A DNA stretch of 64,000 bases. It comes from Ophelia neglecta (Eukaryota). Each line of letters opens with the position of its first letter. The stretch's first letter is position 1. A program made the translations under genes and the position numbers. Under the pieces are notes generated by a model. That model was not told the origin of the DNA. It saw nothing but the letters and a program-made list of their open reading frames with translations, and ran no database searches. Below, in pieces: positions 8,048 to 56,949 of the stretch. The stretch is taken from NCBI GenBank assembly GCA_965285935.1, contig OZ260666.1, positions 52,328,001 to 52,392,000 on the forward strand, read 5' to 3'.

Positions 8048-8212
8048 ATGTTAGTGGTGTCTGTTAAGGTGGATCCACCTAAGGACCCAGTGACCCAGCC
8101 TCCCCCCTCCCCTGGCCAGTGTGCCCCAGTACATCCTGAAACAGAAACACCATCAGAGCCACTAGATGTCACCATCATAGCTCATCAAGAATATCACCAT
8201 GTAAGGCCTAAG
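8048..8212 (+). CDS. Candidate alternative or cassette exon, Pro-rich
   Basis: MLVVSVK/VDPPKDPVTQPPPSPGQCAPVHPETETPSEPLDVTIIAHQEYHHVRPK. Possible acceptor gttaag|GTG at 8069. Two phase-0 donors: CAT|gtaagg (8200) and AAG|gtaatc (8212). Confidence 0.35.
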
Positions 8213-9639
8213 GTAATCGTCACTCATCTACATTATTATGTGGACTGGAGCAGGCGCTGTTTGCCTGATGTTTTGTCGAGCAGATGGGGAGCCAGAATGG
8301 GCGACCTGTACAACCCATCTACATAGTACATTATCATCCCTCTCAGCCTCCTGCCATTCTCAATGGTAATGCCATTCCTCCCTTTGAAAGGCAATGACAT
8401 AACCACTGCGAAAATGATAATTTTACTCGACATATTACCTCATATTGAAAATCAGCCAAACTGAATATTTCCCAGCCAATTTTGCAAGTTGACTGGCTGG
8501 TTGGCTAAATGGAGATAGCCTGTCAAGAAATTCAGTTTTATCCCAATGATTTATATAAGCTGGGCTGATGAGACATTGAAGTACTGTTTAGCCAAGACTT
8601 TGGTAACCAAGATAGTGCCTAGTGCAGACATTGATTGGCTATTTTGGCATTTGCTGGAATTGGATGATGATTTTGACATTAGAGGGATCTGCATTGATCA
8701 GGCAGGTTCTTTGTTAGGCCAGTGGAGGTGCCAGAAGTGATCAATGGACTCTGGATACAGTTTGTTTGACCACTGATCGCTTTATTCAGAGACAGGAGGA
8801 CAGAAGAGGAAGCTAAAGAGTGGCTTAATAAAAACTATCAGACATCTCTATGTCCCACCACAAGACACAATGTTATTCTTTGGATACTGACTGAGTATAA
8901 ATCACCAGACTAGATCTAAATGATTTATAACATTTCTAGCCGACTGTGTCTCCAGTCCTCTGAGTACAGTCTTATAGACAACATTGAGCAGCTTGTACAT
9001 GTACAGAATCGGTCTTACTCTGGAAGGGCTGTTCAAGGCTGTATGTACAAGTAGATGTGTGTGACTAGGGGAAGGACCCTTGGCTTGGTTATTGGCAGCC
9101 ATACCACACACAGGAGGAGCTAGCAAAGCATCATTACCTTAGCTGGACAGGCCTCTGCCTCAGTCTCAACTCTCTCTCTAATGAAGATGGCTGCTTGGAT
9201 TAGCCAAGGGATTAATTCTTCATGAAATATAGGTGACAGTGGCATGTGTGTTTGGCTGTATGGCTAATAAGTAGCTGGAGGCGACAGGCCCAATATCCCT
9301 GATAGAATGATCAGGCATTGAGTCTGGTGGCCACCCTACAGGACTACAACATCTAACAAGGAATTAGGCACCTTATTTGTGCCTAACCTAATGACAAACA
9401 CGGACAAGTCAGGCATTAACAGGACCCAGTCTACGTAAACAGACGTTATCAGTATCATAGGTATTAGATTCTCAAGAGCATGTTAGGGTGTCATGCTTCC
9501 TGATCAACTTTAATTGTTTACTTTTTTGTATTGGATGTAGCACATTTTATTCCCTTGTTTTGTTCTTTTTTTGTCGTAAGACCCAGGCAGTATCAAGTGC
9601 TCATGGTAATGTCACAGTTTTCATGTTGTTTTCAGACTA

Positions 9640-10720
9640 ACCTTGGCTCATGTCATTGTTACACTACCATGTCACACTACTCTGGGTTCCTGTTTTTGTT
9701 ACAATACCATGACAGAGTACCCCAGGTTCATGTTATTGTCACACAACCCTGGGTTGATGTTATTTTCACACTAACCTGGGTTCATGTTATTGTCACACTA
9801 CCATATTGTCACAGTACCCTATTGTTGCACTACCCTAGTTTTATGTTATTGTCCCATTCCTGTGGATTCATGTTATTGTCAAACTTGCCTGGGTTCATGA
9901 TATTTATACACTTACCAGGGTTCATGTTATCGTCACACTACCATATCATCACACTACCCTAGTTTCATGTTATTGTCCCATTTACCTTGGTTCATGTTAT
10001 TGTCCCACTACCATATTATCATACTACCCTTCATGTTATTGTCACACTACCATGGGTTCCAGTTATTTTTACACTAACCAGGGTTCATGTTATTGTCTAC
10101 GCCTATGTATTGATTTGGTACCCTGTCACATTAGGTGCTAGGTTCATGGTATTGTCTATCTAGTTTGGATTCATGTTATTGTCACACTACCCTTGGTTCA
10201 TGTTATTGTCCCAATACCCTGGGTTTATGTTATTGTCACAATACCCTGGGTTCATGTTATTGTCACAATACCCTGGGTTCATGTTATTGTGCCAATACCC
10301 TGGGTTCATGTTATCGTCACACCACTCCAGGATCATGTTATTGTCACAATACCCTGGGTACATGTTATTGTCCCAATACCCTGAGTTCATGTTATTGTGC
10401 CAATACCCTGGGTTCATGTTATTGTCCCAATACCCTGGGTTCATGTTATTGTCACAATACCCTGAGTTCATGTTATTGTCCCATTACCCTGGGTTCATGT
10501 TATCTTCGCACCACTCCAGGATCATGTTATTGTCACAATACCCTTGGTTCATGTTATTGTTCCAATACCCGGAGTTCATGTTATTGTGCCAATACCCTGG
10601 GTCCATGTTATTGTCCCAATACCCTGGGTTCATGTTATTGTCACAATACCCTGAGTTCATGTTATTGTCCCATTACCCTGGGTTCATGTTATCATCACAC
10701 CACTCCTGGATCATGTTATT
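9640..10720. repeat. 27-bp minisatellite CCCTGGGTTCATGTTATTGTCACAATA, degenerate 5' half and homogeneous from about 10160
   Basis: Direct reading. Yields the GSCYCHNTL and MLLSQYPGF repeat ORFs. Confidence 0.95.
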
Positions 10721-13700
10721 TTTTCACATCCCAGACTTTCATTGCAATTCACTTTGAGGATTGGTTGGCTGATTATAACTATTTATTTCGGAGTACTTGT
10801 AATATTTATTCAGATGTTATCAACCAATATATTATGATGAATATATATGACTTGGCTTGTATGTACATGTACCAGCTAGTTCATGTTTTATACTAAAAGC
10901 AAAGACCAATTTGGTGTAAGCAATATTAAATGTGTTGTTTCTTGCCATGAGATGTCAATTGTTCTGGATTATTTGAGCCAAAAGAAACAGCCAAGTGTGG
11001 TGGTGTAAAGTCTGCAATCTTAACATTAAGATCTGGGTGGCTGGTACTGAGTTTGTTTTGAGACACATTTCTCTTGTTTATAGCAGATTGGCATGAACAT
11101 AATCTATGTTACAATTGTGAGGTCTGAGTAGTCTTTATCTGGACTGAAGCTTCTGAACATTAAACAATATTATATAGCTCTCATAAACTGGGCATTTTGT
11201 GTGCTCCTGGCCTAATTCATGGATTTCAGTAAGCATGAACTCACAAGCAGACGTACCTTTCAAGCTGTAAAACAGACACAAACTCCTCTTTCAGAATCAG
11301 AGGTCAGAGATATAGGTTTTATGTCTGGCTGAAAAGGACCACTAGTTGTTTTTGTCCTCTTCTACTAGTGTGGTTTGTGAGACTAGTATAAAGAGGCTGA
11401 TTGTCCTATGAGTAGCACTAAATACTGGTTAGGCTTGGATCTTGCTCTCATGTGTGCAATAGGAGATTCTAATTGGATTCTTTTTCTGAAATCAGAAGAA
11501 CATCTCCCATTTTTTAAAAGGAGATCCATTAAGAAATGAGTTGGCATTAATCAGTGCAGCATGTGGAAATGATATTTGCATTAATTAAACTCATGCTGCA
11601 GAACTTTATCTATGCTTTGGTGATGGTAAACATGCTTAGATGCAAGTTTGTTGTTGAGTACTTTATCAGAGGGTTAGGGAGGAATAAATAGGTATATTTT
11701 TGTTTTGTTGGGGGTAGTTGGTGGGGGCGGGTGGGGGTGGCTACTTGGGACTTTGGCTGCCTCTGTTCCTTATCCTGCTGCAGTGTTTGTCATCTTAACC
11801 ATTTGCCTGGTCAGTGGGGTCAGGGCATGGGCTCTTGATGAAGATTTTCTATAAAAAAAGATACAAGGTGCTAAATGGCTACCATTGTGCTTATGTGTCA
11901 TTTACACCAAAAATCTAATCCAAATGTCAAGAAAATACAAAATTGAAATTTTTGGGAAGACAAAAATGAGGCATGGTCCTAGGGTTAGGTTTTTTTTATT
12001 CTGTTGTTGCCTCTTGCTCACCTTTAGCCTCTGTCTAAAGAACCAGTCCTTCCGAAATACAGGGACTTCCTTTGAGGCTTTGGCCCTTTGCTATGGGCCT
12101 TGTAGTTACATGTGAAGGAACCTTGTAGTTTTCATCTGCTGAAGTATGTCAGTAAAAGATGTATCCCAGTCTGATGGACAATGTGCGTTTCTCAGCAGGG
12201 TCAAGCCAAGAAGCACTTCACTCACTACAAGACACTTTATTTTAAGACAAGGAAACCACTAGATATTCCAGTACTACTACTACATCACTTTATATCAGTT
12301 AATAGTCTCATCACTGATCTCATTTACACATATTTACCTGTGCAAGAAGCAGCACTTTGATGCTGAAGTGTGGTGGTCTACCTGGCAGGAAAATATTTTC
12401 CCTAAACTAGGAAAAATAGATTGGGAAGGGCAGTATTTTACTGTAAAAGTGAGTATGCTCCCAGTATTCCCCATTGAGTCTTTGTTCATTTCCAAAATAA
12501 TAATTTTCCCTCCATTCTTGTTTTGTTTTAGAAAATAGCATGCCTTGTTTCTGTTGGAGTTTGCCTGATGTAATCTCAAATGTTCAAATATTGCCAAGGG
12601 TAGACATTCTTACCAAACTATATTAGTTGCTGCAGCAGGCATTGTGAAATTGCTATATTATATCACAGATTAGTTGTGGTGTATTATATGTACAGGAGAC
12701 TTCTTGGTCGCTAAATTATCTAAGACATAATTAGCCCTCCACTAGGATGCATAGAATAGCTTTAATGGAAATAAAACTTCTGTGGTTGGATGGCAATATT
12801 GAGTATCTGGCAGGTTGTGCTGGAAAGCATCTTTCTGATGGTATGTCCTCTTGCACAATGTCTGCCAGAACTGCCTTGATCTGCTGACTCAGCCATTGAT
12901 CTCCATCCGTTAGCCCATCAACCAGCCCATCCGTCAGGCCATCCGTCAGGCCATCAACCAGCCAGCTTGTCTGCTCCTCAGGTTAACTTGGCTTTCTTTG
13001 AAGGCAGCCACTCCAAATAAGCCACACACTTATATTGGTGTGAGGAGAAGCAGAAGTCAGGGGCCCTCACTCTATCCGAGCATCTTTATCCTTTGATACC
13101 TTCAGCTAGTTTTATACATCCTCCCTGGCCCATTGCATCCTATCTCAGCCCCAAGTCTGTATAAGTGATTGATTTGTGCTGGTCATGTTTGATGTCTCCT
13201 CGTTAAACTGGCCAGGAACAGGGCTAGGAGGCAGTGTGTTTGAGTTTGAAGGATGTCCAGGCCCGGGGCAAGTGATTTCCCTCCAGTTAGGAAGTGTTAG
13301 GCACTGGCTTTGTCATAGAAACAGGCCATTCAGTAGAAATTGGCAGTGATGGACTGGTGTAATCTACATTAGCAGATTGGCATTGCTGTGCTGGAGTGAC
13401 AAGCACTGTGTACTCCAGGCTAGCGGTCTAAGCAGATAAAGCTACATGGTACTCACTTGAGATAGATACATGTTACTCAGAGAAAACCACCGCCATTTTA
13501 CTGATATAAACACTGTCACAGATTGCCATGAATTGTTTCACTAACTGTCATTAAATGTAACCATTGTATTGTTAGAAGCTAACTTTGGCTTTTGCTGTTG
13601 CATTATTCCCCTAGAACAGCCACTCCTTTCTTGAAATCTGTGTCTGGCTGGTAGAACTCATGTGTTAACTGGATGCAGTACTTGTAATGTGTAGATTGGT

Positions 13701-16700
13701 TTCTAGGCTTGCCACCTGAAATGACCAATTTACTTATTTTCAACTTCAAGAAATGAAGCCACCTTTATAAAAGATGATAAAGACTGTGTTGTGATGTTCA
13801 AAGTGGCTGTTGGAAACCTGGTTTGAAGTAGGAGGGAAGCTGAGCAGCTTAGCAGGATGTAATGTACCTAGTCCTGTCAGCCGTGTATGTGTCACCTGCC
13901 ACTAGACACTTAATTCTGCATTATGGCTATTTATTGTGGACCCATTACATTCAGGCTGTGGGTTCCATGTAATTTCTGCTTCAGGCCCAAGAAGCCTTCA
14001 TGCCAGAATCACCATCTTGTTGTGAATACCTAATTTATAGCACTTGGAGCTGCAGACTTTCCCTGAGGTTGGTTTGGAGGCCAAACAGGAAATGCTAAGT
14101 TCTTTTTCTAGTTTATTGGCCTGTGGCTGGAATCGATAGCTGATTTTAAGTGCCCGTAATTGGTCTCGTCTTTGTGTTTTGAGCCATTCGTGATTGATCA
14201 GTTTTTTCTTTAAACTATTTGGTGTTAATATTCTGGAAGCTGTGTGTTCTGGACTGGGTTCAGGATGCTTTCTGGTCAGTGTCTTATGGTCAGGATTGTT
14301 TTCACAGCGACATGTCAAGGCAAAATATCAATGGTTTGCCTTGGACAGCAGTCAAAATGATAGTATGTGATGCATGCTAACATCATTTAAACATTCTGTG
14401 TCTCAGGGGAAAATGATATACACCATAAATGGAGAAGTGCAGACATTTTTCCCTTTCACTTGCATTAAAAAAAATAGATTCTTAGTGACAGACAGATGGT
14501 CTTCCTAGGCATACTGAGATCATTTGGACAGGAGCACAGAGAAGGAGGTATGTGGCTTTATTGAACTCTCCGGGCATAGTTGGTGTAATAAGGCTGTGAA
14601 GAATCCATTCTGAGACCTCTATTGGGAATGACCACTTGAAGATTATCGTTTGGCTGGCTTTATCTTGACTGATTGGTGTTGGTCCCTGGAACTTTGTCTT
14701 ATCTGCTACCAAAATCTATTGAGTGGTTTAACCAGGCCAATCCCAGTCCATTGATGACCAGAGATTGAACTGTGATCAGAACAATACACCCAGCCTCCAC
14801 CACTCTGGTGTGCTTTCCTCTGGTCATTAATTTGCATCAGGAAGTGAGTGACCAGACGGGGTGAGTAGTATGACGAGCTATCAGTTCAGGAAAGCAGATG
14901 GAGCTGTTCAGGTGGTGAGGGTATAGGCTCAGTTCAAGTATATGGTCTCCGGCTAGAGCTGCCTTCTTTACTGATATGATAGCATGAGGTTTGGGTGGCA
15001 TGGAGAGAGACAAGATCGGGCGTTCTGTATGCTGGTGGCCAAAGAGACTGAACTGGATTGCAATGCCAGTCCTGGCTGTTTTCTGTATGACATTAACAAT
15101 TTGTTCATAACGCACAATTTATTAACAATGTATTCCCCACTTAATCATTTATACACCAGTCATTGTGAAATAGTTAATTTAAATGATAAGTTGAATGAGA
15201 TGAGAGAGTACGAACCAGGGAAGTCAAGAAGGAGGTCAGATGAATAATTTTAATACTTGTTATGTTTAACATGTTTATGTCATTTTATATCATGTTAATC
15301 TGATGCTAGCTGGTTTTCTGTTTAAAGTAATCAACCAGTCAAATGAGTTGTGGTTTGTATAAACTAGGATTGTTCAATTGCAAAAGAAATGTGCCCTTAT
15401 TCAGCCACCAATCTGGCTGTGACGTCCTTCACACATGCTGCTCAATCTGATTTGTTGATGTGAAACCAGTAACTAGCCAGTCTATTTCTAGGCGACCACC
15501 AGTCATATGAGCAGCCTTACTTGTGTTAGTAATTAAGTTTGCTATTTGCATACCTTGCTACAAACTACATGTAACAGGCTTTGGGCCATAATGAGCAGAA
15601 GACAAAATAAGGCAACTGGCTCTCCACTGTGATAATCCTGGCAACACCAAAGGCTTGGCTTTTAGTATCAGGATGACTGCTGCATACAGTACTATCATGA
15701 AAGTCTTAAGAATATGTTAACAATGAAAATGTACAGATTTGCATCAAGAGTACAGCCATTGTATGGGCCTCACCGTGGCAGTGGTGCTCTTCTGCTCGTC
15801 ATATTAGGACTCAAATGTCGATGACCTAGTTAATGCTTTGCTCTTGATTTACAGCTAAATCTTGATAGTTCAGGGCAAATGACACATTCAGGATAGAAAG
15901 CAAGAATGTAGTTGAGAAATATCATCTTATTTGAACTCAAACCTTTTTGCCTGCTAGCCCATCTGCTTCATGTCAGTTGAGCACAACCCAATAATTCTCA
16001 CCAGGAACTTTAAAGTAGGTTAAGGAAACCTGTCAGCTGTGGTTTCTGGTGGCGGTGAGAGGTGAGCTCTGGCTCTTTTGCCTCAGTTTCATGTAAGACC
16101 TGCCACAGTTTTCTGTTAGCATGTTTAATAATGCCACAATTGGTTTGTGGCTAGGTGTCTTGCGGTACTAGGCCAAACACAATGAATGACCTATTTGAAG
16201 ACACATATCAGTATTTATTACCCTATTTTTATAACTTTATGTACATGTAGCTGACTGTACAAATACTGTATTTTTCAATGAAGGACTTGTCATTGGGTGA
16301 TTGCACACTTGAGTACTGTGTTCCTGCGTATATAAATAAGACTTCTGATGATGACTGGCCAGTGCCAGTCAGAGTCACAGACTTAACATAACTCTGAGTT
16401 GGCTGTGCATGGGTCAGACATTTGTGCTTGGGCCTAGGCAGTAGATAGTTCAGAGTTCTTGGTTTGAGATCAGGCATTGCCCACATGTAGGTCAGAGAGT
16501 TGGCCGCATGAGAGAGCCGAGCCCATATCACCTCAACACCTGTCCAGATGTACACCAACTACACTGTTATGGTACATTCCCCCGGAAATTCTTGGTCCGC
16601 TCTTGAAATTCTGAGCTGAAAGCAGGAAGAGGGAATCATTATATGAAGCTCTCATTCCTGTGATACATTCAATTGCTTTGCTTTTTACAGTTTTTATTTG

Positions 16701-19700: not shown

Positions 19701-20319
19701 TGGAGATTCTTGGAAAACTGCAGAATTCAAATTGAGAGGCAACAATAGCAGTCTACATACAAAGTTGTTCCACACTTGTTGATTATATAGGCTCGAGTTA
19801 AACAATGAAGTGCATTGAAAAGGAGAATGACCTAGCTAATCCACTAGCTATAGATACTGTGCCTATCTGGGAGATAGTGGCCAAGTGCTTCCCTCGGTGA
19901 TATAGCTAAGCTTTATGATTAGAGCTCTCCACCATCAGGACCGACACTCTCCGAGTTAAACCCAACCCAAGCCACAACACCCTGGGCTGTGGTCTCAGAA
20001 CACAATCACTCTCAAATAGAGCTGTGGCCTGGCCCTGGCTTCATCACCGCCCTCTGCCACCTTTATATCTTCAAGTTGGCTTGTGGTTCCTTGCCAGTCG
20101 CTGGCAGAATTGCAGAAAGCAGAACAATTACATGTTGGTAAATATGATGTATTAGTGTGCACACATCAAAGTATACTGGAGAACACAGCAGTTGGATGGA
20201 CTGCCTGAAGACTCGCTTATAGCAGGAATAGTGTTCTATATACTTCATATTTGGATTACATTGACTGCTGTCATTCATATTGTAATATGTCACAAAATTG
20301 GGGTCCACTTTTTGCTAAA

Positions 20320-20409
20320 ATGATGGGTAGACATTGGCGAAGAAAAAGGAAGGGCTCCAGAAAAGATATAGAGAAAATTACAGATGGAGAAAAAGGCAAA
20401 GAAAAACAG
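20320..20409 (+). CDS. TRIO: Candidate alternative first coding exon (SH3+GEF2 Trio isoform)
   Basis: aaaATGATGG start, 30 codons MMGRHWRRKRKGSRKDIEKITDGEKGKEKQ, then a strong donor CAG|gtaaga in phase 0 matching the SH3 exon acceptor at 32124. Purine-rich. Absent from the ORF track. Confidence 0.6.
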
Positions 20410-26800: not shown

Positions 26801-26994
26801 AGTCCTGTGCAAACCATACTGTTTATCTGCTCCATGATGGGTCCCGCCCTATGTTTACAAGGTCACTCAGTCTGAAGATTGGGCTGAGGTAATGGCACAC
26901 ACCCCAGGACAGCACTCTCTCCTGTCAACAATAAGTAACTCCAGATAAATTTCTAGTCCAAAAAAGATCACCTGGTATCAAAATGCTAGCTTGG

Positions 26995-29762: not shown

Positions 29763-30062
29763 ATGTCTGGTTGGAAAAATGTTGGGACTAACATATTACA
29801 TGCATTTAGCTGGCGCTCACGGCGGTCGCGTCATAGGGAAAGTAGTAAAAAGCGGCCACCCCCGCCCCCTCCCCCTACCAGGGAGACCAGCTCAGACAAC
29901 CTGTCTGTGGCGGGACCTGTCGACCTCAAAGACTGCCTCATTGCCTTGGAGGAGGGGCAGTCTGCCAGCTATCCCCCTGACCAACAAACAGGAAAGGAAC
30001 AGGCAGGAGTGAAACAGACAGGGGAGAAAACCCCAGGGGAGGAGGAGGTCATTCTGTTTGAG
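29763..30062 (+). CDS. TRIO: Candidate alternative exon with basic and polyproline N-terminus
   Basis: Acceptor ttgttcttcatttacacag| at 29755/29756, ATG at 29763, 100 codons to GAG|gtagac (phase 0, fits SH3 exon). Encodes MSGWKNVGTNILHAFSWRSRRSRHRESSKKRPPPPPPPTRETSSDNLSVAGPVDLKDCLIALEEG...EEEVILFE. GC/CpG-rich and non-repetitive; the donor is weak. Confidence 0.6.
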
Positions 30063-32123: not shown

Positions 32124-32373
32124 AGTTGCAATGACTTATGGCTGATCACTGATGATTACACAGCAACAAGTGAGAAGGAAATTAGTGTTAGTCGAGGCCA
32201 GCAGGTGGAGCTGGTAGAGTCCGCAGCAGGAGGCAGCCCAGAATGGTGTCTAGTGCGTCCACTTAGCGTGGAGTCCAGTAGTGCCCCCGCCGAGGGTCTG
32301 GTCCCCGCAGCAATGCTTAAACAAGTGCCAAATCTCAAGGTTTCTGGCTCTCGGGGCAGCATAGAAAATGAAG
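32124..32373 (+). CDS. TRIO: Trio/Kalirin family Rho-GEF, exon encoding the first SH3 domain (phase 0 to 1)
   Basis: Acceptor tttctatttcag|AGT, donor GAAG|gtcagt. Translation SCNDLWLITDDYTATSEKEISVSRGQQVELVESAAGGSPEWCLVRPLSVESSSAPAEGLVPAAMLKQVPNLKVSGSRGSIENE(G) carries SH3 hallmarks (DY..E.S...GQ.VE, WCLVR, EGLVP) and the SRxSxExEG tail, matching Trio SH3-1 as I recall it. Confidence 0.93.
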
Positions 32374-33659: not shown

Positions 33660-33803
33660 TATGTAGGGCCCCTCCAATGAAGGGCCACCTTGGATGGGAG
33701 GGCAGTTTTTGAATACTCATGTCCTATCTTATCCAATGGAGGGCCACCTGCAATGTACTTTTTCATTTGATTTAGGGGCAGCCCTACATCGCAGCGACCA
33801 CTG
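33660..33803. mobile_element. Second, diverged copy of the same MITE (opposite orientation, one end truncated)
   Basis: TATGTAGGGCCCCTCCAATGAAGGGCCACC...TTTTTGAATACTCATGTCCTATCTT...TTTAGGGGCAGCCCTACATCGCAGCGACCACTG|TA aligns by eye to the reverse complement of 53877-54055, and ends CACTG followed by TA. Confidence 0.72.
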
Positions 33804-34802
33804 TAGATATGTGTCACTAGCATTACTGGTGCTCAAGAATGTTCCAATACATATGGCCTGGGCACAATATGTCAATACAGAATAATATTTCTGATATGCA
33901 TGGCTTATGTAAGGACTCTTAAAAACCAAGTTTGATGTCCCCTTTCTCATTTTTATTAACCCTTTATCTTGCGAGTCCTGAGCGAGATTCTTATACCATG
34001 TGCTGTATACTTTACTGAAATGTAATAAGTTGATTGTGTAGTCTGGCTGTAGCACTGAGGACTGTAGCTTTTTGGTTTTGTTTAAATATTGCAAAATTTG
34101 CCGGCCTAATGATTTTTTATTATAAAAATCTTATTCATATGGTAATATCATGAGTACATCACAAATGTCTTGTTTTTTAATTGTACTGTATGTTTACAAA
34201 TAAAATTATCAAGTAATAGAAAATAGAATGAGGAAAAAAGAGAACCATATAAATAACCAATTTACCCTTTAAATGTAACATGTTCAGCATTGTACCCTTT
34301 CAGTGCCTGGATTTTATATAGAATATGTCCCTGTTGGTGGTATACGGCTACATTCATTAAAAATATATTCTGTATTTATTGATTTTCCTTGGTCCTGGTA
34401 TACTTGCAGCATCCCATTTTCCTGGAACACATTGTTAACATTTACTATGGCCTTTTTCTCTGATCCTCTGTTGCTCTGACCTTTTGGTAGTATTTGTCAT
34501 CACTCGAACAACATGTGTGTGTCAGGTGAATTCTATGCTGCCCTGGGTTATCTAGGACTTGAAATAGCTTTATTTTATGGAAGCCCAGCATGCAGGCGAG
34601 CTTCTAGGAACCAGCCAGACAGACCTGGGATGTACTTACCTGTCAAATGGTGATCCCTAACTAGGTTTTTATCTAACCTTAAGTGAGATGCCTATAAGTG
34701 TCAGATTTGAAGATTTCTCTGCAGCATTTGTGATAAGGTGACAATCATGTCTTGGGTGTCCCCCCCCCCCCATGTACAGTGTATAACAAGGTGGCTCTTG
34801 AT

Positions 34803-37527: not shown

Positions 37528-37648
37528 GTGATATGAGTACCCCGGCGGCCAGTGGAGACCCCAGTCCTAACACATCTACCTACTCGCTGGCCAGCAACAA
37601 CTCGGCTGCTTCCTCCTCTCCTGCAAACAAGAGAAGAAGCAGCTTTAG
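37528..37648 (+). CDS. TRIO: Trio exon, Ser-rich linker after the SH3 (phase 1 to 2)
   Basis: Acceptor tttatttcttgcag|GT, donor TTTAG|gtagga. In frame with both neighbours: (G)DMSTPAASGDPSPNTSTYSLASNNSAASSSPANKRRSSF(R). Confidence 0.88.
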
Positions 37649-38663
37649 GTAGGAGACAGTATTTCCCATTTTCAATTGTCTTTACCAGTTATATACCATG
37701 GTTTTCCATACATACTGAAGTACAGAACCTGAGAAATTCAAAATTGACCAAGGTACTTGATCAATACTGCAATTTGGCAGGTTCTGTATGAGGTAGGTAT
37801 GGAAATCATAAGGTAAGAAGCTAGATTCTAATATACCAAATGGAAAATTCTGCTATTACGTTGCATCAGCTTCCATAACTTTCAACATGACAGCTGACGA
37901 CAGATGACTGGTTGATGGCAGACGACAACTTGTCAACAAATCTTGATTGTTAGAAAGTGCCCTAGCAGGGGCAACCCTTAGCAAGCCAGAAATGCTTGGC
38001 AAGTGGTTAAAAACGAGTAATTATAAAAAGCTATATAAACCAGGGGAGAAAATGTCGGTACGAATTTTCCATATGGTATATTTGTTATAAGCTCAAATTA
38101 TAATAAGTTATAATAATTGTTATAAGCTCAAATTCATGAACAGCAAAGAGCTCGGGATTGTTTTCATGCCAAAACATTCAATTCATATTATATGTTTTGT
38201 AGAAAATTGCTTATTTTATAGGTCACTTCCTTGTAACTGGAAAATCATTGTTTTTTATTATCTATATTACATGGACTGATATATGGAATATGTCAGTTTG
38301 TTTCAATTTACTTAGCAATTAGTGTAGGATATTTAAATTAAAACCCAAAACTGCCCCATCAAATACGAATTGTGTTTCATGTTTCAAGAGGCAGACTTTA
38401 ACCGTACTGCCTTTCATATGATATGTGAGGCTCAGAGAAAGCACTGTTAGCTCCTGTTTTCCTGGATACAATATCAGAAGAAGTGTATCACAATAATACA
38501 GAACCCTCAGGAGGCAATGGGTTAAAGACACTTTATATGCTATATATGTAGTAGCTTCCTCCTCTCATCTAGTCCCTCATCAGGCAGGGCAAAGTCCACC
38601 TCTGTTCTGCTGTATGAAGATAATTTTATTCTCTATATTAATCATTTTCTTTTTATTCTTCAG

Positions 38664-38799
38664 AAAATGGTTAACAAATCCAGTGCGTAAACTCAGCCAG
38701 AGTAAGCTGGACAAATCTGGGTCAGAAAAAAATTCCCTGGAAAACTCCAGTAAATCAGCCAAAGGTCATAAAGGAGGTGGAAAATTCTCAACATTTAAG
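38664..38799 (+). CDS. TRIO: Trio exon with the conserved RKWLTxPVRxLS motif (phase 2 to 0)
   Basis: Acceptor ttttattcttcag|A, donor AAG|gtaggt. Encodes (R)KWLTNPVRKLSQSKLDKSGSEKNSLENSSKSAKGHKGGGKFSTFK, resembling vertebrate Trio/Kalirin RKWLTSPVRRLS. Confidence 0.92.
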
Positions 38800-38871
38800 G
38801 TAGGTCACCACAAAATGAACTTCCCTGATCTCTAGACTAGTGGCAAAGTGACTGGATGAATAAGTTAGGGA

Positions 38872-42928: not shown

Positions 42929-43030
42929 CTGGGCAAAGCCAGCAAGACAATCTGGGCAAAACCAGTGAGACAATAGGGGGAAAACCCAGTGAGACAGTCT
43001 GTGTAAAACCAGTGAGACAATCGGGGCAAG
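42929..43030. repeat. Degenerate ~23-bp repeat (CTGGGCAAAACCAGTGAGACAAT), about 4 copies
   Basis: Direct reading. Confidence 0.7.
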
Positions 43031-46000: not shown

Positions 46001-48212
46001 CATTTAAAAACGTCTGGCCTGGTTGATTGTAGAAGTACATTGGCACTGACAGGCTGGCACCAACTTGAGTGGTTGAGTTGTATACTGGTAAACACAGTTC
46101 TCTGGTTTATTAGAAGGCATGCTGAGGGCATGTTGGATGTAACAATAGGCAGGGACTAAGACTGTACTAGTAGTCAGTACACTGTTGTACAATATACAGT
46201 GTACATTGAGCATCATCAGTGCACTAGATTGTCTACACCAGTGATACTCTCTGGGTATGTGTATAAGAAGCTGATCTGAGCCCAGTGTCCTTCACTCCTG
46301 ACATCAGCCTCATCCACATGGAAGTGGGCAGGTGTACACACCGCTGGCACCTCTCTGGTCAGTAGACTGTACTGACCAGAGGCCAGTCAGAAGTCAGCAG
46401 CTGAGGTGATTACTGTCTAACATCTCCTACATCCTACCTACATCCCACGGAGACCCCAACCCCCACGGAGACCCCAACCGGCAAGTGTTAATCAGACAGA
46501 AGTACCTGGGGCCAGCAATCTAAGCAGGCCTGGAATCAGAGAGAGGCAAATACAGCCACAGTTAAACATACACAGCCAGTGTTAACTAGGAATATATGTC
46601 TAACAACCACAGTTAGTCACCAACAGCCAAGGACTACAGCCTAAGTTACTCATCTGAAGCACTGTTACCTGTGTGTAACTTGTCTGACTGTTTACGATAC
46701 CCATTTTTAAATATACCAGGAGACTATGAACTTCAAGCCAATATCAGTGCATTAGGCTAGTCTAGTCACACCCCAAAAAACATTGTGATCAATATTGCAC
46801 CAAGCCACTATTTGAGCTATTGGAGCATGATCTGTTCTAAGCGTCCATACTTCCAGTTTCATAGCCTGTATAACACTTGAATAATATTCAGAGGATAGTG
46901 ATAGCAGAGTTCTTGTGACATTTGTGTTTGGTTAATATGGGAGAGTACAAACAATGTAATCAGCAGGTTACCTGATAAGAGAGGATGACACCCTCTAGCC
47001 TCCTGTGATGTTATCACCCCAGAGGAAGATCCTACCACCATATACATACCTGTACCTGTCTCAGCCCACAGATCCTCTAGATAATAAGCTGACCTGTCCC
47101 CAGGGAGAAGCATATGGGACTGGATTTCATTTCTCTCTGTTTTGCATAGTGACCAAATAACCAGTCTAGGAGATACAGTTGTAATGAAGTGATTTTGAAT
47201 AAGTTGTGAGCAAAACCTGCCTTGAATTTGTGCATCTTTCATTTGGCAACTGCTGGCACTTTACTTTGCTTTCTGATAATTGCTTTCTGTGATTTCATTA
47301 TTAACAACAATTTCACAACAATCATTCTAGGAATTTGAAAGGGGAAGCTAACGTATGGGAGTACCGTGTGTGAATGTGAATATTAATTAGCATGCCTATG
47401 TGATTACCTGATTACGGAAGATTAATTCCGTTCATCATCTAAGTGCTAACCATATATCTGGGATTGATTCATTAGTGTTGCTGTGTTTGGTGTGCCACTG
47501 TGATCCCTACATCAGCCACTCTGTGCTCTGGTCAGTGGGCAGCACCCCGTCTTCCATTGATGTGTATATGGATGATTGTGCATGATATTGAGGGACAGAA
47601 TCAACATTCTCATTGTTGTATATGATTTATGGAAAGTGAAAATACTTGGTTTAATAACTCACCCAGCTTGTATGAAAATTATATCATTGGCATTTGAATC
47701 TTGATAAGCAGCATGCACACAAGCTATTGGATCAATGTGCACTGTTGGTTTTTCTGATAACTAAATTAAATACATAGATATGTGTGGGCTATGTACAAGG
47801 ATATAACTCTGACTGGATGACACAACACCATATATTATTGTTATCTGTCTGACTAAAAACTTCACTATGAATAGCAAATGTAGTTGATTTAGGAAATTAA
47901 CACTTGAGCAGTGTAATGTGCAGATTCCAGTTATGATTTTGCTAACAATATATACACAGTGGGAGGAATTCAATATCAATATTGTATAATATGGAGTGCT
48001 AGTGAGGTGCACATTGAGCTGTGTGAATGGTGCTTACAGCTAGTGAATTACATGTGTAGCTTCTATTGACTAGTGTCACATGTGTGAAACCTAGCCATAT
48101 TCACATTGAAGAAGACAAGCTTGTACCCAAACCTGGCTGACAACTGGCTATGTGGTATAAGTCTATGCAAAAAACCTTTTCAGTTGCATAGATAGGAATA
48201 CATAAACTCAAT

Positions 48213-48368
48213 ATGGGAAAGACTCGGAAGAAGAGAAAGTTCTTCAAATTTTTCTCATGCCTGAGTAGTAAATCGGACGACATGTTAGAGGAAACCATTA
48301 CCAGTTCTCCGCCGCAGAGTTCTACCTCTCCCCTGAAAGAGGTGGGAACCTCGTCCCCCGAGTTCATG
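48213..48368 (+). CDS. TRIO: Candidate alternative first coding exon of a short, GEF2-only Trio isoform
   Basis: ATG to donor ATG|gtgaga is exactly 52 codons (phase 0, fits acceptor 52329). Encodes MGKTRKKRKFFKFFSCLSSKSDDMLEETITSSPPQSSTSPLKEVGTSSPEFM. Locally CpG-retaining within CpG-poor DNA. Confidence 0.7.
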
Positions 48369-49561
48369 GTGAGAATCCACTCGACGGGCTCTATAGAAAT
48401 ACCCTGGCCCTCCGATTGGGTAAATGTGTAATATCATCCCGTTAAATATTCTGGCACATTGCATGTTGTAGTCACTTTTTGGCGGGGAGGGTGGTCGTGG
48501 GAGGGAAGGGGGGGGGTTAGTTTCAACAGTGATTCGACTTTTTTTATAATATAATTTAGAATTATGTTTGATCTGATGACAGTATAATACAATTGATTTT
48601 TATAGGCAAAATTTTCTCCATAAAAATTTATATTATTATTGCATTATTTTTGTGGCCAGGTTATGGTAGCGAGATAACATCAACATATGCTTGCTGTTTT
48701 TAACCTTCACAATGTCAACACTGTGTAGCAAAATAACCTTTGGAGTCCAGTATTGTCCATAGAATGAGAACAATGAGAACAACATCTAATTGCAGGATTA
48801 GTGATCAATATTTCATGTACTGTAGGAGTAAAACATTAAAATCAGAAGGATCCAAGTCCATTTCAGAACAATATAAACTTGAATCCGTCATTGTCTAGTA
48901 CCCAAGTAGTACTATATAGTAAGCTGTTTGTTACCGTGTATAGCTTGGCCACGAGCACATTTTAGGGATGCTGCTACACGTTTCTTGATTATGGGGGGCT
49001 GGTTTTGTTTATTTGTGAACACTGCACTTCTGTAGTTGTCAAATTTTTTTGCTTTAAATGGTGTTTTGAAGTATACAACTTTTATTTATTGCATACAGAC
49101 TTATGATTACATTGTATTTAATACTGTATGTTCTTTTATACATATATTACAGTAATGTTTTACTCATTTTGCATGAGTTGAGCATTACTGTACACCTTTG
49201 AATGCAGAGCTGATTTTGTACAGTAAATCTGAAATATGCTATTATAAGACAACACCATTATCAAAGGAAACTTATATTATTAGAAAATAACTTTGTTTAC
49301 ATTTATCACAAGAGAAAGCTATATTGATATCTATTGATATCTTGTACAAGGGCAAATTGAAGACAACACACCACTTTCACAAATAATAGGCCAAATACAT
49401 TTTATTTTTGCTCTTATTTGTTTCTTAATATTGAGCGTAAAATAAGCAAAGAGGCTGATGGGGATTGACTGAACATTAGTGAGATACTTCTAACTCACAT
49501 TCAAAATGTTTTGTCTGGTTAATAACTTTGAGATAAAAGATCAGATATTGCAGCCTACACA

Positions 49562-50603
49562 GACCCTGTCATTGACTGGGAGGGGGTAAGGGTGCTAGTG
49601 GATCAGCAGGGAGCAGGTGGGACTCTGTCATAGACTGGGAGGGGGGAAGGGTTCTGGTGGATCAGCAGGGAGCAGGTGGGACCCTGTCATAGACTGGGAG
49701 GGGGGAAGGGTGCTAGTGGATCAGCAGGGAGCAGGTGGGACTCTGTCATAGACTGGGAGGGGGGAAGGGTGCTGGTGGATCAGCAGGGAGCAGGTGGGAC
49801 CCTGTCATAGACTGGGAGGGGGGAAGGGTGCTAGTGGATCAGCAGGGAGCAGGTGGGACCCTGTCATAGACTGGGAGGGGGGAAGGGGGCTGGTGGATCA
49901 GCAGGGAGCAGGTGGGACCCTGTCATAGACTGGGAGGGGGGAGGGTGCTGGTGGATCAGCAGGGAGCAGGTGGAACCCTGTCATAGACTGGGAGGGGGGA
50001 AGGGTGCTAGTAGATCAGCAGGGAGCAGGTGGGACTCTGTCATAGACTGGGAGGGGGAAGGGTGCTTGTGGATCAGCAGGGAGCAGGTGGGACCCTGTCA
50101 TAGACTGGGAGGGGGGAAGGGTGCTTGTGGATCAGCAGGGAGCAGGTGGGACCCTGTCATAGACTGGGAGGGGGGAAGGGTGCTGGTGGATCAGCAGGGA
50201 GCAGGTGGGACCCTGTCATAGACTGGGAGGGGGGAAGGGTGCTAGTGGATCAGCAGGGAGCAGGTGGGACCCTGTCATAGACTGGGAGGGGGGAAGGGGG
50301 CTGGTGGATCAGCAGGGAGCAGGTGGGACCCTGTCATAGACTGGGAGGGGGGAGGGTGCTGGTGGATCAGCAGGGAGCAGGTGGGACCCTGTCATAGACT
50401 GGGAGGGGGGAAGGGTGCTAGTGGATCAGCAGGGAGCAGGTGGGACCCTGTCATAGACTGGGAGGCGGGAAGGGTGCTAGTGGATCAGCAGGAAGCAGGT
50501 GGGACCCTGTCATAGACTGGGAGGGGGGAAGGGTGCTGGGCAGGACCCTTTCATTGACTAAGAGGTGGTTCTTGCAGGTATCTGGAGGGAGGGACCCTGT
50601 CAT
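49562..50603. repeat. 59-bp G-rich minisatellite GGGACCCTGTCATAGACTGGGAGGGGGGAAGGGTGCTGGTGGATCAGCAGGGAGCAGGT, about 17 copies
   Basis: Period 59 (49681 to 49740). Confidence 0.96.
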
Positions 50604-50667
50604 GTCTATTACATTACAATCATAAAAACTTAAAAAAAAGATATTATGATTTCATGATTCAGGAAAA

Positions 50668-50830
50668 CCTGCCTTAAAAGACCACCTCTGTGTTCAGACA
50701 AATTTTAAACTCTGACCACTGATATGAAGTACACTTTCTAACAGAAATAACCTGTCCATGTAAGCCACTTACATGACTGTACATGTATGTAATCCATCTA
50801 TCATATTCCAATCCCTTGGGTGGTCTTAAT
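50668..50830. mobile_element. Decayed MITE remnant
   Basis: AAACCTGCCTTAAAAGACCACC at the left and GGTGGTCTTAA at the right form a short inverted pair of the kind seen in Tigger-like MITE ends. Confidence 0.3.
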
Positions 50831-52328
50831 TTGTCTTCTTTGTTTTTTTCTATGATGTGTAGAATCATATAAAAATACAATATACCTTAACCAGGTAGCC
50901 CAGGGACATGATTTTATTTTTCTCATTATGAAATGGAGAATGTACATGCACATATTGTAGGTGGTATCTATGTGCTCACATGATAAGTTACGACACAAAT
51001 TTAAAGTATCCATCTAACTCAAAGTGCACTACAGTGTAGTCCCAAACCTGGATACCTCATTTATAATATTAAGTAGATATAACTTTAACATGTACATCAA
51101 CCCACTTTACTAGTTTCAATTTCCTTGGTCATTATTCAGGAAGCCTGCCTTTGACTGAATGTGTTGACTTGGATAATTAAAGTAGTCAGTAGAACCAGAA
51201 AGTAGTATAACAAGCTAATCCATGCCATGCCATACCTTTTTTATCTGACAATCACATACACTAGATCAACATATAAAACTGGCGAGTACTTCGCAATGGT
51301 GGAGCTTGTGATGACCTCTGACCTGTTTACCAAGCACTTGGTTCACAAACCTTTGGTCTTACTCTGTTCAAACATACACACGATGATTTACTGACTTAGC
51401 TACACATCCTTTGTGCCTACCTATATCTTATTACTTCTTGCTTATAAAAAATAGGCTGATAACTAACAACGCGTAGGAACTCTCAATGCTGGGACTGTGA
51501 ATGTCAGACAACAACCTACAAAATCTCTGCACTAGGGTGTCATTCATATATCAGTGGTTTATGGACCAGGAACCAAGTTTACTTTACATGAACATATGTG
51601 TAAAAATGAGACTAGCAGGGACATATTCCCCGGCTCTGTTATCTGATCTCACCAGACGTTAGTCTAACATGACCACAATGGAGGGGATGTTTTTGGCCAG
51701 ATGTTTGTGTCAAATCATCTGTGTTCTTGTCAAATGGTAAATCTAACGACAAGAGGTCTGGGATATTGATCTTCTGAATCACTGGGCATGTCAAATTTCA
51801 AGAAAACATTTCAATATTCATTCAGGAGAGTGATATGCTGCCATAAGCAATCTGTAAGTGTGGAAAGAATTAAATGTATGTCAACTCATTCAAAGGACGG
51901 TGTACATTATGTATTGAGAATGTGCAATTATATGAAAATATTTAACTTTCAGTCATGTATGCTTTTTCAAATGTTCTGATCCTTCGGAAAACATCAGAAA
52001 TGAGTCACTATATTAAACACCAAACAAAACACACCCTGCCAGTGATCTCCTGACACCACACATGGCACAGACATCCTGACATAACAACTAGAATGTGTAC
52101 AAAGGCTGGCATATTAACCTCCGTCAATTAATTATTATGATGTATATGTGTATGTGTAAAACCCATCAATCCGAAGTAATCACATTTTTTCATTGGGTAT
52201 GTTAAGTAAGATTTAGGAAATGAGAGCAGGCATGGTAGGCGAACTGTGTGTGAGCCTTATGTACTGCTTTCCCATGTTGCTTCATCGCTTTCCCTCATTG
52301 CTATTTTGTTATCCTGATGTCTCCGCAG

Positions 52329-52412
52329 AACCTCCTCCATAGCTCAGAGGATGCTGGAAAACCAGACAAAGATAAACCCCCTCTGGCACAGCAGGAGGAT
52401 CTGGCCGAGGAG
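52329..52412 (+). CDS. TRIO: Trio linker exon (84 nt, phase 0 to 0)
   Basis: Pyrimidine-rich acceptor ...tctccgcag|AAC, donor GAG|gtaata. Encodes NLLHSSEDAGKPDKDKPPLAQQEDLAEE and preserves frame. Confidence 0.75.
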
Positions 52413-53876
52413 GTAATATACTGCAACTACTGCTGCCATGTCACCTGGTGTCTCTCTGTGTCACTGTACCCCGCCCCCTGGTGTATGGTACATGTAGTAG
52501 TTTTGCTCTTGCGCCTGACAATTTATTCTTTCTCTTGCATTCATTATCTTGTCCCTTATTAGCTGTTTGCTACACCTTGTGTAAAAGTTTGAATGCAAAC
52601 TCAACACAGACTCTACCAGTTTTCTGCCTTATTCATTGTAAAAGTCTGAGTGCAATATTTGTATGATTCTGTTTGACTTTACCTTGATGTTAAATAGTTT
52701 GGACCCTCTTTTAGTTTGCCCTCTTTCTCTGTGTACGTTATCTGTGTACTGTGTATAAGACTTTACACAGATTATGATCCCTGCATGTTAACTGTCATCT
52801 GGTTGGGTTCTCCTATCGCCTAGTAAGTTGTCAATCTCCAGCTAGATGTACTGTATATCCCTGGCATCCTGTACCATACCTGTAATTAGCTACCCTATTA
52901 ACACAGCAAAGTCACTGTTATGTTCTGATCACTAGGCTTTGGCACTTGCAGTAGAATTCTCAGTATGCAAGATACCACAACCTAATAGTATGCATTTTTT
53001 TTCTGAACTTCCAATTGACTGCTCTTTCTGCCATCGCTGTGCAGTTTATTGAAGAAACTGTTGTTCAATATGTTCAGAGGTTGGGATGTCCTATGGGACA
53101 TAGTAGTGAGAAGAAGTAGTATAAACAGTTAGACTATCAGAGAAAGCTGTGGAAAGACACAATTAGTTCAAGCCATACGATCGCGAAGTTTCTGATGCAA
53201 ACCGGAGACTTGTTTGCAGCAAAAGTTCCATTAAAGCACATCTCAAATATCCTTATTAAGCAGAACTTTTTGCCTAACCGAACTAAATATACATGACTCA
53301 GAAAAAATATGTACAGCCTGCCAAATCTCAAACATAAACATGGTGAAATAAAACTGATAACTTTGGAGGCTTACATGTACGGCGATAACTATGTGAGCTA
53401 AGGTTTGCCGTCTTATTTGATATGTTGATTACTGATCATGGCTTTCATGCTTTCCACATAGATCATTAATCTGTGCTAAACTGGAGAGGCCATCTTTGAT
53501 ACACCTGATGTGTGTATCACAGGTAGTGCCTCAAGCCACCCCTATCAATGTGCCAGGGACAAGGGGCATATTTAATTTCAAAATCGTATGATTCTTTGTC
53601 CTTTAATCCTCAACTGGGCATTTCTAAAATTTCAAACACTGCCGAATGTCACAAAAACCCATGGTGACTCCGTTAGGCCACATTAACTGACCTGCTCAAT
53701 TTGACATGCCTGTACTGGAACATTTGCATATTTTATGACACTTGTAACTGCCTCATTCAAATGATGCCAAAAATCATGAATTAGCAATTTCTTAATGGCA
53801 CATAAAATTATTAGCATTATGTATGTCTATGCATAGTTGTACTAAAAACAGGCCAGCACAACTTGTCAATGTTACA

Positions 53877-54055
53877 CAAGGGTCTCTGCTATGTAGGGCC
53901 ACCCCTAAATACTAGGAAAAGTGGCCCTACATTGAAGGGTGCCTCTCCATCGGAGATACATTACTATTGAAAAGATAAGACATGGGAATTCAAAAAGTGT
54001 CAGGCCATCGCAGGTGGCCCTTCTTCGGAGGGGCCCTACATAGCAGGGACCACTG
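53877..54055. mobile_element. MITE (about 180 bp), probably Tc1/mariner pogo/Tigger-like non-autonomous element
   Basis: Imperfect terminal inverted repeats CAAGGGTCTCTGCTATGTAGGGCC ... GGCCCTACATAGCAGGGACCACTG. A second homologous copy lies in inverted orientation at 33660-33803. Confidence 0.75.
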
Positions 54056-54633
54056 TTATCACTCTGGTACCATCAGAGCCCTTGTCAGACTGCCATCAGT
54101 GCCTCCAAGTGACTGAAAAAGTGCTAACTTGGATACTGAGAATTGAATGCTATTAAAGATTGTGGCTTGATTTTGGATGTTTACCTGTTGACTTCTTTTG
54201 AAACAGTTGTATACAGATGATAAAATCATATTGCCACACATTTGGCCAATGGTACGTGTTTTAAGCATTAAATATGTACATGGAATATCATTGTCTGTCG
54301 TCATTCTTTCAGTTATGTTACCCATTACTGTGCTCAGTTTTATGTATAAAGTATCATGTACTTGTAAGGTCCAGACAGATCTATTTAGGATTGGTTTGTT
54401 TGTTATATTTTAGATCTAGTAAGGCTTCATTTACATGTACTTAGTATTGGCATATAAAGGCAGATCTGTATTTCTGTGTTTGAACTATGAATTTTCTCAT
54501 TAAACTGTATGATATTGAACACTTTGCACAATGGACATCTTTATAGGGGAGAGATGTCCATCTTGTATGTTGTCTTGAAATCAAAGTTTGTATCTGGTCA
54601 TTGCAGATGCAGCAGTTATTGTATTGAAATGTG

Positions 54634-54882
54634 ACTGCTGTCTCCTAACCCAGTGCCCTGCTCACATGGCCTGGTGCCTTTTATTCCCCCTTATTGCTCA
54701 GTAGTTTAGGGTCTGCACTGCTGTCTCCTAACCCAGTGCCCTGCTCACATGGCCTGGTGCCTTTTATTCCCCCTTATTGCTCAGTAGTTTAGGGTCTGCA
54801 CTGCTGTCTCCTAACCCAGTGCCCTGCTCACATGGCCTGGTGCCTTTTATTCCCCCTTATTGCTCAGTAGTTTAGGGTCTGC
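54634..54882. repeat. 83-bp tandem triplication
   Basis: ACTGCTGTCTCCTAACCC... starts at 54634, 54717 and 54800; the copies look identical by eye. Confidence 0.95.
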
Positions 54883-56949
54883 GAGCAGAGTATCAACATG
54901 CTGGATGATTGGTACTTCTGATATCTTACCTCAGCTACCAAAATTAATAATGTGGTTTAGAATTTATGACAATATTTGCCACCCAAGGTCTTTTGAGAGA
55001 TGACCAGTAATTTTTTGACAAGGAATAAACACCCAGTGCCACCTCCATGGACAAACTTAGTGAGAAATTATATTCACTGAGTTTCTTCCCTGATTATAGA
55101 ATGCCTGTTCCTATCCTGTCAATTACTTTGCGGATATTACTGGTGTGCAGAAGATTGTACCTGTTGTCTGAAGACTTCCATCTGCCATCCCATTTGCTCC
55201 TTCTGTAGGTGTATTCTACAAAAACCTTTATCTGACTCTCCTCAGCTCCTTGACCATTGAACTTGTCTATATAATATAATTGTTGTCTGAGACGATGTAG
55301 ATGCCTTTGTGGCCTTTGGCCTTCTGAATATTGGCTTCATATGGTGCTACCTTCAGCTTGTATTAACCTGTTTTCACCAAGATCTATATATTTTACTTGG
55401 CATTTGACACCATTATGTTTGTGAAAAGTACATTATATTAAACCATGTGCTATTTGAGGAAACTAGATTCCTTGACATTTAGCAGTGGCAAGAACTGCTC
55501 TCATTAAATGATATATTTATATATACATACATGTACATTAACAGATACAACTGTAAAGGGAATTGTTTGGTTTGATTCTTTTTCATTCTTTCTTTCTACT
55601 TGTTTGATAAAATTATGTTTGCTGATTTTCCTTTCTGAAGATAATTTGACAGTTATCAGTCCCTAAAGTGTATTCACAAATGCTTGTTATTTGTGATTTG
55701 TTATATAAAACCAGTCCGTAGTTTTTTTGCAAATGGAATATAGAATGTTGAGATAATCAGTTTTTGTTGATGACCTTTCAATCCCTGTGTGAGTTGTGAG
55801 TTGTGATTCGCTGAGTGAATGTCAGTTCTGGAAAATTGCAATGGCAATCTCTTGTCGCCTTGCCAAGCCATGTATTCTTGCTAAATACCGGGTAGTTCAT
55901 TTTGTTTGGACCTTGAATTCAGAATGCAATAAATATTCTATAGTGTATTTCCTTTGTTTGGCTTGAATAAATGGCTTTGCCCTCCCTGGCTCAAGTTGGC
56001 CGAGTGGGAGGAATTTGTGACCCACAATACAAGCCTGTTACCATAGTTTGAATTAAAGAAAATGCTGACCTAGAATGAGTTCACTGTGGAGCAAGTAAAA
56101 CACACTAGACTAAAACATATAACTGGTGAATGGTTAAATGATTATAATCAAGTCTTAGAACTAGTGTTGCCAAGAGGTGCCAATTTCATAATCGATCATC
56201 GATTATACATAACCAATTGATCATCACATATAATCAGTTAGCGCATGAAGTAACAGGCAAGACTTTGACTGGGTATTTATTGCAGTTAGATATCCCTTTT
56301 TTTTAAATTTATACATATATGCTGAGGAGAGTCAGATGAAGGTTCTTGAAGAGTACACCTACAGAAGGAGCAAATGGGTTGGCAGACGACAGTCTTCAGA
56401 CAACAGGTACAATCTTCTGCATGATAGAAAATTCACATTGGCAGAGGAACTATTTAATACTAGTGGCTTAATAAATTAACAAACCCAGATGTGATTAAAT
56501 TGATAGTTGATTTTTTTCATTCAAGCACTTGGTTAGGAGAAGTAAGTGACTGAATTTCGATTATACTCCATCATTGTGACAACACTACTTACAATAAATG
56601 TCTCGGTTTGCTCTTTTGATAACTATTTAGGGATATTTAGGACAGATTTGGCTCTTGCTGATATTCAGCAAATATTTGGTTATCCCCCTAAAGATATTAG
56701 ATCATTGGTAGTATTACCTTTAGCTTGGTGTTATATGTGAACCACTCAGATCTTCCATTTTTATTACATCATATTCCCGTATTCAGACTCCCCCATTGCG
56801 TTTCATACAAAAAATAAAGATCCTTAAACTTCATGAAGTGTGACTGATTGGCATGTAAATCTACAACAACCAAATGAGTAGAACTTGTCAACAGTGATTA
56901 GGTGATGATCTCCTTGCTGTTTTCTGTGCTAATCAATAATACATAAACC

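Follow-up and report, generated by a model that had tools for sequence, protein, structure and literature searches.

Conserved candidate first exons for GEF1-less Trio isoforms in the long introns of an Ophelia neglecta locus

Can the long introns between the two guanine nucleotide exchange factor modules (GEF1 and GEF2) of a Trio gene hold alternative first coding exons, and would the leader peptides they encode address a GEF1-less protein to membranes? The question is raised by a 64,000-nucleotide stretch of the Ophelia neglecta genome (762 Mb; assembly GCA_965285935.1, contig OZ260666.1:52,328,001-52,392,000, plus strand), referred to here as the window, in which a preliminary description had proposed at least three and possibly five such exons. 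RhoGEF matches lie 4.5 kb before the window and 1.4 kb after it, and translation of the flanks gives, in order, spectrin repeats, DH1/PH1, SH3, linker exons, DH2/PH2, a second SH3, Ig, FN3 and kinase; the window is the inter-DH part of one Trio gene, between the GEF1 DH exons and the GEF2 DH exons. On balance, two of the five segments, at window positions 29763-30062 and 48213-48368, are probably conserved alternative first coding exons of GEF1-less isoforms with predicted acidic-membrane-binding N-termini, as judged from sequence comparison.

All five proposed frames (8048-8200/8212, 20320-20409, 29763-30062, 48213-48368 and 56374-56406) were confirmed to open with ATG and to be followed by a GT donor in phase 0:

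8048..8212, plus strand: leader 1, doubtful; proline-rich, without a basic patch, codon score -2 to -3, no homologue found
20287..20409, plus strand: leader 2, probable first coding exon, with its ATG at 20287, 20320 or 20323; donor 11.0 bits
29763..30062, plus strand: leader 3, 100 amino acids, would join the SH3 exon; conserved, donor 5.7 bits
48213..48368, plus strand: leader 4, 52 amino acids, would join the exon at 52329, skipping the SH3 and KWLT exons; alternative phase-0 donors at 48341 and 48419
56374..56406, plus strand: leader 5, likely a chance frame; score reached by 131 of 348 null candidates, donor 4.8 bits

Codon usage was scored with a model trained on 42 exons (2317 codons) and set against 175 null candidates, the highest of which reached 6.5 bits. 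A second ranking combined an amino-acid model trained on Trio linkers with the donor score and compared 44 gene-strand candidates with 348 null candidates; leader 3 is absent from it because its internal 47-nucleotide repeat was masked. A joint filter that selects exactly leaders 2, 3 and 4 (3 of 168 plus-strand and 0 of 171 minus-strand open reading frames) was set aside as illustrative only, its thresholds having been fixed afterwards.

A scan with the KWLT linker exon yielded 11 loci for comparison, and two of them carry orthologues of leader 4, at L022:15455 (46%, E 2.9e-9) and L023:7329 (50%, E 5.4e-12), both ~5 kb downstream of the KWLT exon. In L022 the leader 4 orthologue is followed by the orthologue of exon 52329, in the exon order seen in the window, and the locus covers a further 2.2 kb beyond the latter; both loci stop short of the SH3 exon, and leaders 1 to 3 are outside this comparison. 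The leader 4 peptide consists of Met-Gly, a basic run, a Phe-rich patch and a single cysteine, Cys16. The three-way alignment begins at the same starting Met, and 24 of its residues are invariant, among them Gly2, Cys16 and those of the Phe-rich patch; the basic run is partly replaced in the orthologues, the Phe-rich patch and the cysteine being kept more. An in-frame stop lies 8, 45 and 22 codons upstream of the ATG in the window, L022 and L023, respectively, and a phase-0 GTGAGA donor, picked among several GTs by its appearance, follows after 52, 103 and 90 codons. The codon has changed synonymously at 16 and at 15 of the 25 residues held in common, and the differences between the L022 and L023 leaders are distributed 8/7/29 over the three codon positions, a third-position bias. 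The codon score of 21.7 bits was reached by none of 2000 base shuffles, and the amino-acid-plus-donor score by none of the 348 null candidates. By these sequence measures, leader 4 is under coding constraint. Myristoylation of this leader was considered and not adopted: Gly2 is invariant, but Lys3 and the Lys, Arg or Ser at position 6 fit the consensus poorly. Upstream of the orthologues' ATG, L022:15282-15380 and L023:7225-7317 form a 99-nucleotide block that is 73% conserved and contains GT-box, TALE, CRE and ETS-like motifs, which we take to be of promoter type. A separate 29-nucleotide block, 97% identical between L022:11118-11146 and L023:3422-3450, lies ~1 kb past the KWLT exon and was not found in the window.

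Leader 3 has an amphipathic start, a Trp plus a basic run, seven prolines and an acidic tail; it had been described as opening with a basic cluster, which in fact starts only at residue 17. The Ridgeia SH3-linker model, used as query, returned 103 proteins, and a pre-SH3 peptide matching leader 3 occurs in spliced gene models from two gastropods, Plakobranchus (P0025, named kalirin-like isoform x8) and Elysia (P0023). In an ungapped alignment, the start of leader 3 and the N-terminus of P0025 are identical at 11 of 28 residues (BLASTP E 1e-4, for this single pair), and the match score was reached by 0 of 5000 shuffles for each of the two models. When the P0025 leader was slid across six frames of 204 kb, the top score, 50, fell exactly at the 29763 ATG, with 28 as the next. 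The homologues retain the amphipathic stretch and the Trp, and the codon score of leader 3 (27.2 bits) lies well above the null maximum. The 47-nucleotide internal repeat is made up of a 15-mer. Longer proteins searched directly for leader 3 gave no match among 247 candidates, the ESM Atlas returned no usable match to leader 3 and only SH3 matches to residues 1-110 of P0025, a metagenome scan with the SH3 alignment gave 0 of 130 stretches, and cluster look-ups revealed no further short isoform carrying a matching leader. Unrelated leaders stand on GEF1-less Trio frames elsewhere: L026:1-2369, from another animal, is an intronless contig that runs from its own Met through SH3, linker and DH2; L024:841-1328 has a basic Met-started frame ahead of the KWLT motif; and insect and rotifer models (P0049, P0083) have Trp-plus-basic stretches before SH3.

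In the isoform model that we propose, transcription would begin within the intron, either at the leader exon itself or at a non-coding exon not seen here, and splicing would join the leader to the next phase-0 exon. The acceptors at 32124, 52329 and 59455 all open in phase 0, behind the phase-0 introns -1320>32124 (33 kb), 38799>52329 and 52412>59455; the exons that end in phase 0 are the last upstream exon (end at -1320), 38664-38799 and 52329-52412. The shared exons of the window are:

32124..32373, plus strand: Trio SH3 exon, phase 0 in and phase 1 out; Pfam SH3_KALRN E 7e-6, 26.3 bits, below the cut-off of 29.2
37528..37648, plus strand: linker exon, phase 1 in and phase 2 out; orthologues in L022 and L023
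38664..38799, plus strand: KWLT linker exon, phase 2 in and phase 0 out; Pfam SH3-RhoG_link E 0.024, below the cut-off
52329..52412, plus strand: linker exon, phase 0/0, to which leader 4 would be spliced; matched by L022:17756 and by models from Priapulus and Saccoglossus
59455..59682, plus strand: linker exon, phase 0/0
60719..60796, plus strand: last linker exon inside the window, phase 0/0; GEF2 starts at ~64049

Leader 3 would give a protein of the order leader-SH3-linker-DH2/PH2-SH3-Ig-FN3-kinase, like Drosophila Trio M with a kinase tail added; leader 2 would probably keep the SH3 and the KWLT linker in the same way, and leader 4 would give a shorter form from which the SH3 and KWLT exons are dropped. 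The earlier suggestion that internal starts set domain content holds to the extent that 29763 and 48213 are positioned to yield proteins that lack GEF1, one keeping the SH3 and the KWLT linker exon and the other missing both.

The SH3 exon has its best named match (55%) in the annelid Ridgeia; in an SH3 tree of 87 columns the window sequence fell outside the starred set of 11 rows, which included all five named molluscs, and its own place was not firm. In cephalopod Trio a cassette of 17 amino acids stands between two linker exons, and the intron at 37649-38663 holds no convincing counterpart here; a phase-2 ATG..GT candidate in it, 37992-38053, has a basic-hydrophobic score of 0.75 and a negative codon score. 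The other four introns were scanned as well, and none of their 15 leader candidates was coding-like, the codon score being negative in all. The window contains 48 tandem-repeat rows, many of them minisatellites of 15-60 nucleotides that lie in the long introns and extend for up to 1.6 kb, and interspersed repeats at ~56150-56320 and at 33660-33810 (related arm at 53969-54042), the second of very high copy in the DNA sequencing runs considered below.

Several observations weigh against reading 29763 and 48213 as starts of membrane-addressed isoforms. The ATG..GT pattern in itself is at chance level: in the three introns that hold the leaders, phase-0 segments number 61 on the plus and 60 on the minus strand (at least 10 codons, donor score at least 3 bits on a matrix built from 29 real donors); therefore, every candidate was judged separately. 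A match to leader 4 is absent from 9 of the 11 loci, most of which are short or transcript-like. The conserved block upstream of the leader 4 orthologues was not found in the window and can also be read as an in-frame open extension with frame-keeping indels, so that a promoter is only mildly favoured. The gastropod match spans 28 of the 100 residues of leader 3, the first 28 only, and P0025 and P0023, being gene models from related gastropods, amount to approximately one observation. Against its own base shuffles the codon score of leader 3 is not exceptional (p = 0.20) and thus partly reflects GC content; its donor, at 5.7 bits, is weaker than 27 of the 29 real donors, the same ones that trained the matrix. 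Leader 3 is preceded, 115 nucleotides upstream, by an out-of-frame acceptor scoring 10.6 bits and may therefore be a second exon behind an upstream non-coding exon, as in the 5' untranslated region (UTR) of Drosophila trio M. Finally, of the intronic open reading frames, 15.5% on the plus strand and 11.1% on the minus strand exceed 0.6 on the basic-hydrophobic scale (threshold from PMC6960411), and, according to the same source, only some basic-hydrophobic sites bind lipid, and others may bind proteins. With these points taken into account, exons 29763 and 48213 are very probably real coding exons, and it is likely that they start isoforms.

Leaders 2, 3 and 4 score 0.83-1.13 on the basic-hydrophobic scale, and all four orthologous leaders 0.64-0.82. 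The presence of such a patch in the conserved leaders and in 20320 makes membrane targeting plausible. By analogy with ARHGEF25, the leader would keep GEF2 at acidic membranes in the vicinity of G-alpha-q, with leader 4 perhaps carrying a palmitate on Cys16; we give the two exons about an even chance of acting as membrane addresses. The main competing account of targeting accepts that the exons start real isoforms and takes the basic patch for a nuclear-import signal, a protein-binding site or a self-inhibiting element rather than a membrane anchor. Runs of four to six Lys/Arg would suit such a role, as would the seven prolines of leader 3, a possible ligand of the SH3 domain that follows, and the binding of lipid by only some basic-hydrophobic sites (PMC6960411, as above) points the same way, as does the cytosolic location of ARHGEF25-619 despite its conserved N-terminus (reported in PMC5105084). 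What has been conserved argues otherwise, however, since the leader 4 orthologues keep the Phe-rich patch and the cysteine more than the basic run and the leader 3 homologues keep the amphipathic stretch and the Trp, and we regard a purely non-membrane role as unlikely.

Somewhat less likely again is that the exons are coding but are not starts, being either internal cassettes of long Trio or exons whose true start lies farther upstream. The frame upstream of leader 4 is open for 45 codons in L022 and 22 in L023, where the residues are similar and the indels preserve the frame; directly before each open frame of the window stands a TAG that could serve as a phase-0 acceptor; and cephalopod Trio carries cassette exons in this linker. 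Those candidate acceptors nevertheless score 1 bit or less, compared with 8-16 bits for 22 of the 23 real acceptors, and within 250 nucleotides upstream of the leader 3 and leader 4 ATGs no phase-0 acceptor exceeds 1 bit. Moreover, for both leaders the three-way similarity sets in precisely at the Met, P0025 itself starts at that Met, and neither leader is present in any long Trio sequence compared. First coding exons are the preferred interpretation. Three sequencing runs (one sample, one study) gave continuous cover of the introns with no splice joints, behave as DNA and are uninformative on expression. They show no variant in leader 3, where only ~0.7 was expected (7 events in 3071 nucleotides), too little power for use, and, in a single run, two variants in leader 4: a synonymous change at Cys16 and a Glu-to-Lys change at residue 50, which does not belong to the conserved part. 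These were likewise not used. That all five segments are chance intronic frames is highly improbable: the equal strand counts (61 and 60) would suit it, and leader 5 fits it by every test, as leader 1 may, but the syntenic orthologues of leader 4 with their synonymous-site divergence and the cross-lineage match of leader 3 oppose it. On this evidence it does not hold for 48213 and is very unlikely to hold for 29763.

The remaining candidates differ in standing. An in-frame ATG at 20287, missed in the preliminary description, lengthens leader 2 to 41 amino acids and brings in a Trp at residue 17 ahead of the basic run, as in leader 3, with a similarity that is not significant (p = 0.085). None of the 348 null candidates reached the amino-acid-plus-donor score of leader 2; its comparison with the gastropod leader (p 0.03-0.04) is not significant after 20 comparisons, and no homologue was found. 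We lean towards leader 20320 being real. The score of leader 1 was reached by 2 of 348 null candidates with the donor at 8212, a rate at which ~0.25 of the 44 gene-strand candidates would be expected to match it by chance, and by 15 of 348 with the donor at 8200; that leader 8048 is real is rather less than evenly probable. Codon scores are near 0 for leaders 1, 2 and 5, which does not exclude them because, in leave-one-out, 8 of the 42 real exons come out no higher than 0.7. Leader 5 falls within one arm of an inverted repeat, beside the repeat at ~56150-56320:

55146-55246 and 56321-56421, no strand: inverted repeat pair, 101 nucleotides, 92% complementary, 1074 nucleotides apart

The other arm, on the minus strand, also reads ATG, 11 codons and GT, with 4 base differences in the 33-nucleotide frame and 2 of 11 residues changed. 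A transposon end was considered and rejected: no further copy of either arm turned up in the genome, and a local inverted duplication is therefore preferred. Such arms could pair in the pre-mRNA. That leader 56374 is a real exon is very doubtful indeed. A further candidate absent from the preliminary description, 11219-11302 on the plus strand, encodes 28 amino acids, has a donor of 8.2 bits and a score reached by 2 of 348 null candidates.

As a set, then, the sequence evidence divides the five segments into two conserved leader exons that appear real, one that is probable (20320), one that is doubtful (8048) and one that is likely a chance frame (56374). The expectation of conservation in related genomes is accordingly borne out for 29763 and 48213 and fails for 56374, 20320 being probable on composition and donor alone and 8048 doubtful; the description of the segments as non-repetitive stands for 8048, 20320, 29763 and 48213 (one genome match each, in a search that skips common words) and falls for 56374, as an inverted repeat arm. 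Pfam gave no family for any of the four leaders scanned, leader 5 being too short, and leaders 8048, 20320 and 56374 have no homologue among 119 proteins or the 11 loci, which do not reach a close relative's SH3-upstream intron. The segments had also been termed an array of variable first exons. Tandem arrays of paralogous variable first exons are of the protocadherin or UGT1A kind, and by the standard of duplicated paralogues the Trio leaders differ from them: four leader regions are each single-copy, and leaders 2 and 3, the sole leader pair shuffled, gave the p of 0.085 noted above. In the absence of detectable paralogy, the leaders are better described as a set of independent internal starts than as a duplicated array. 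Set beside the start exons of GEF2-only Trio/Kalirin forms, they have the position, a start codon with an upstream in-frame stop and an in-phase donor, and coding constraint is found for 29763 and 48213.

A wider reading is that spiralian Trio has ancient, position-fixed leader classes that would serve as an address code, sending one RhoA GEF-kinase, its SH3 and KWLT exons present or absent, to different membranes; 20320, 8048 and 11219 would be further members. One class would be a Trp-plus-basic amphipathic leader before the SH3 exon, kept in gastropods as well; the other, located after the KWLT exon, would be a Phe-rich leader that opens with Met-Gly and has a single Cys. We consider this wider scheme, classes included, speculative and improbable as it stands. 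Independently of it, two exons without a Pfam match are added to spiralian Trio models, N-terminal leaders prove conservable between distant lineages, which suggests function, and the leaders form a natural construct set for probing the effects of the SH3 and KWLT linker on GEF2.

The idea of internal starts for GEF2-only Trio-family forms has already been published for Drosophila Trio M, UNC-73 variants, KALRN DUET and ARHGEF25 isoforms. No report on these leaders in annelids or molluscs was found among titles and abstract openings, subscription journals being outside this coverage. Drosophila Trio M, as described in PMC11321036, arises from a GEF1-less transcript with its own 5' exons and a 5' UTR intron and is a protein with SH3 and GEF2 domains, to whose N-terminus that description gives no targeting role. 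The leader 3 form would likewise be GEF1-less with SH3 and GEF2 but, unlike Trio M, would retain SH3-Ig-FN3-kinase downstream; leader 3 could not be aligned with the arthropod-type leaders P0049 and L026. Human KALRN DUET has several intragenic starts, mapped by 5' rapid amplification of cDNA ends, which give proteins without everything through GEF1 (PMC11630257). The Trio locus resembles it in having several proposed intragenic starts, a likeness by description in which the starts here are predicted from the genome sequence. In C. elegans unc-73, C1 and C2, and also D1 and D2, differ by first exon. The unc-73 variants A, B, C1, C2, D1, D2, E and F are differentially expressed, and RhoGEF-2 forms act downstream of G-alpha-q (10.1101/2021.05.08.443256); the present locus is likened to unc-73, with its many variants including RhoGEF-2 forms, by description and not by sequence. 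In ARHGEF25, alternative N-terminal exons of p63RhoGEF580, p63RhoGEF619 and GEFT set plasma-membrane or cytosolic location (PMC5105084) and decide signalling efficiency from G-alpha-q (PMC5105084; PMC3722567). ARHGEF25 is, however, a separate vertebrate gene with five putative palmitoylation sites, whereas the leaders described here lie inside Trio and only leader 4 has an N-terminal cysteine; instead of a cysteine cluster of the p63RhoGEF580 type, there is one invariant Cys in leader 4 and none in leader 2 or in residues 1-55 of leader 3. Work on flies, nematodes and vertebrates has already established the general principle, and the design itself is known; what is new in Ophelia neglecta Trio is the leader peptides and their conservation.

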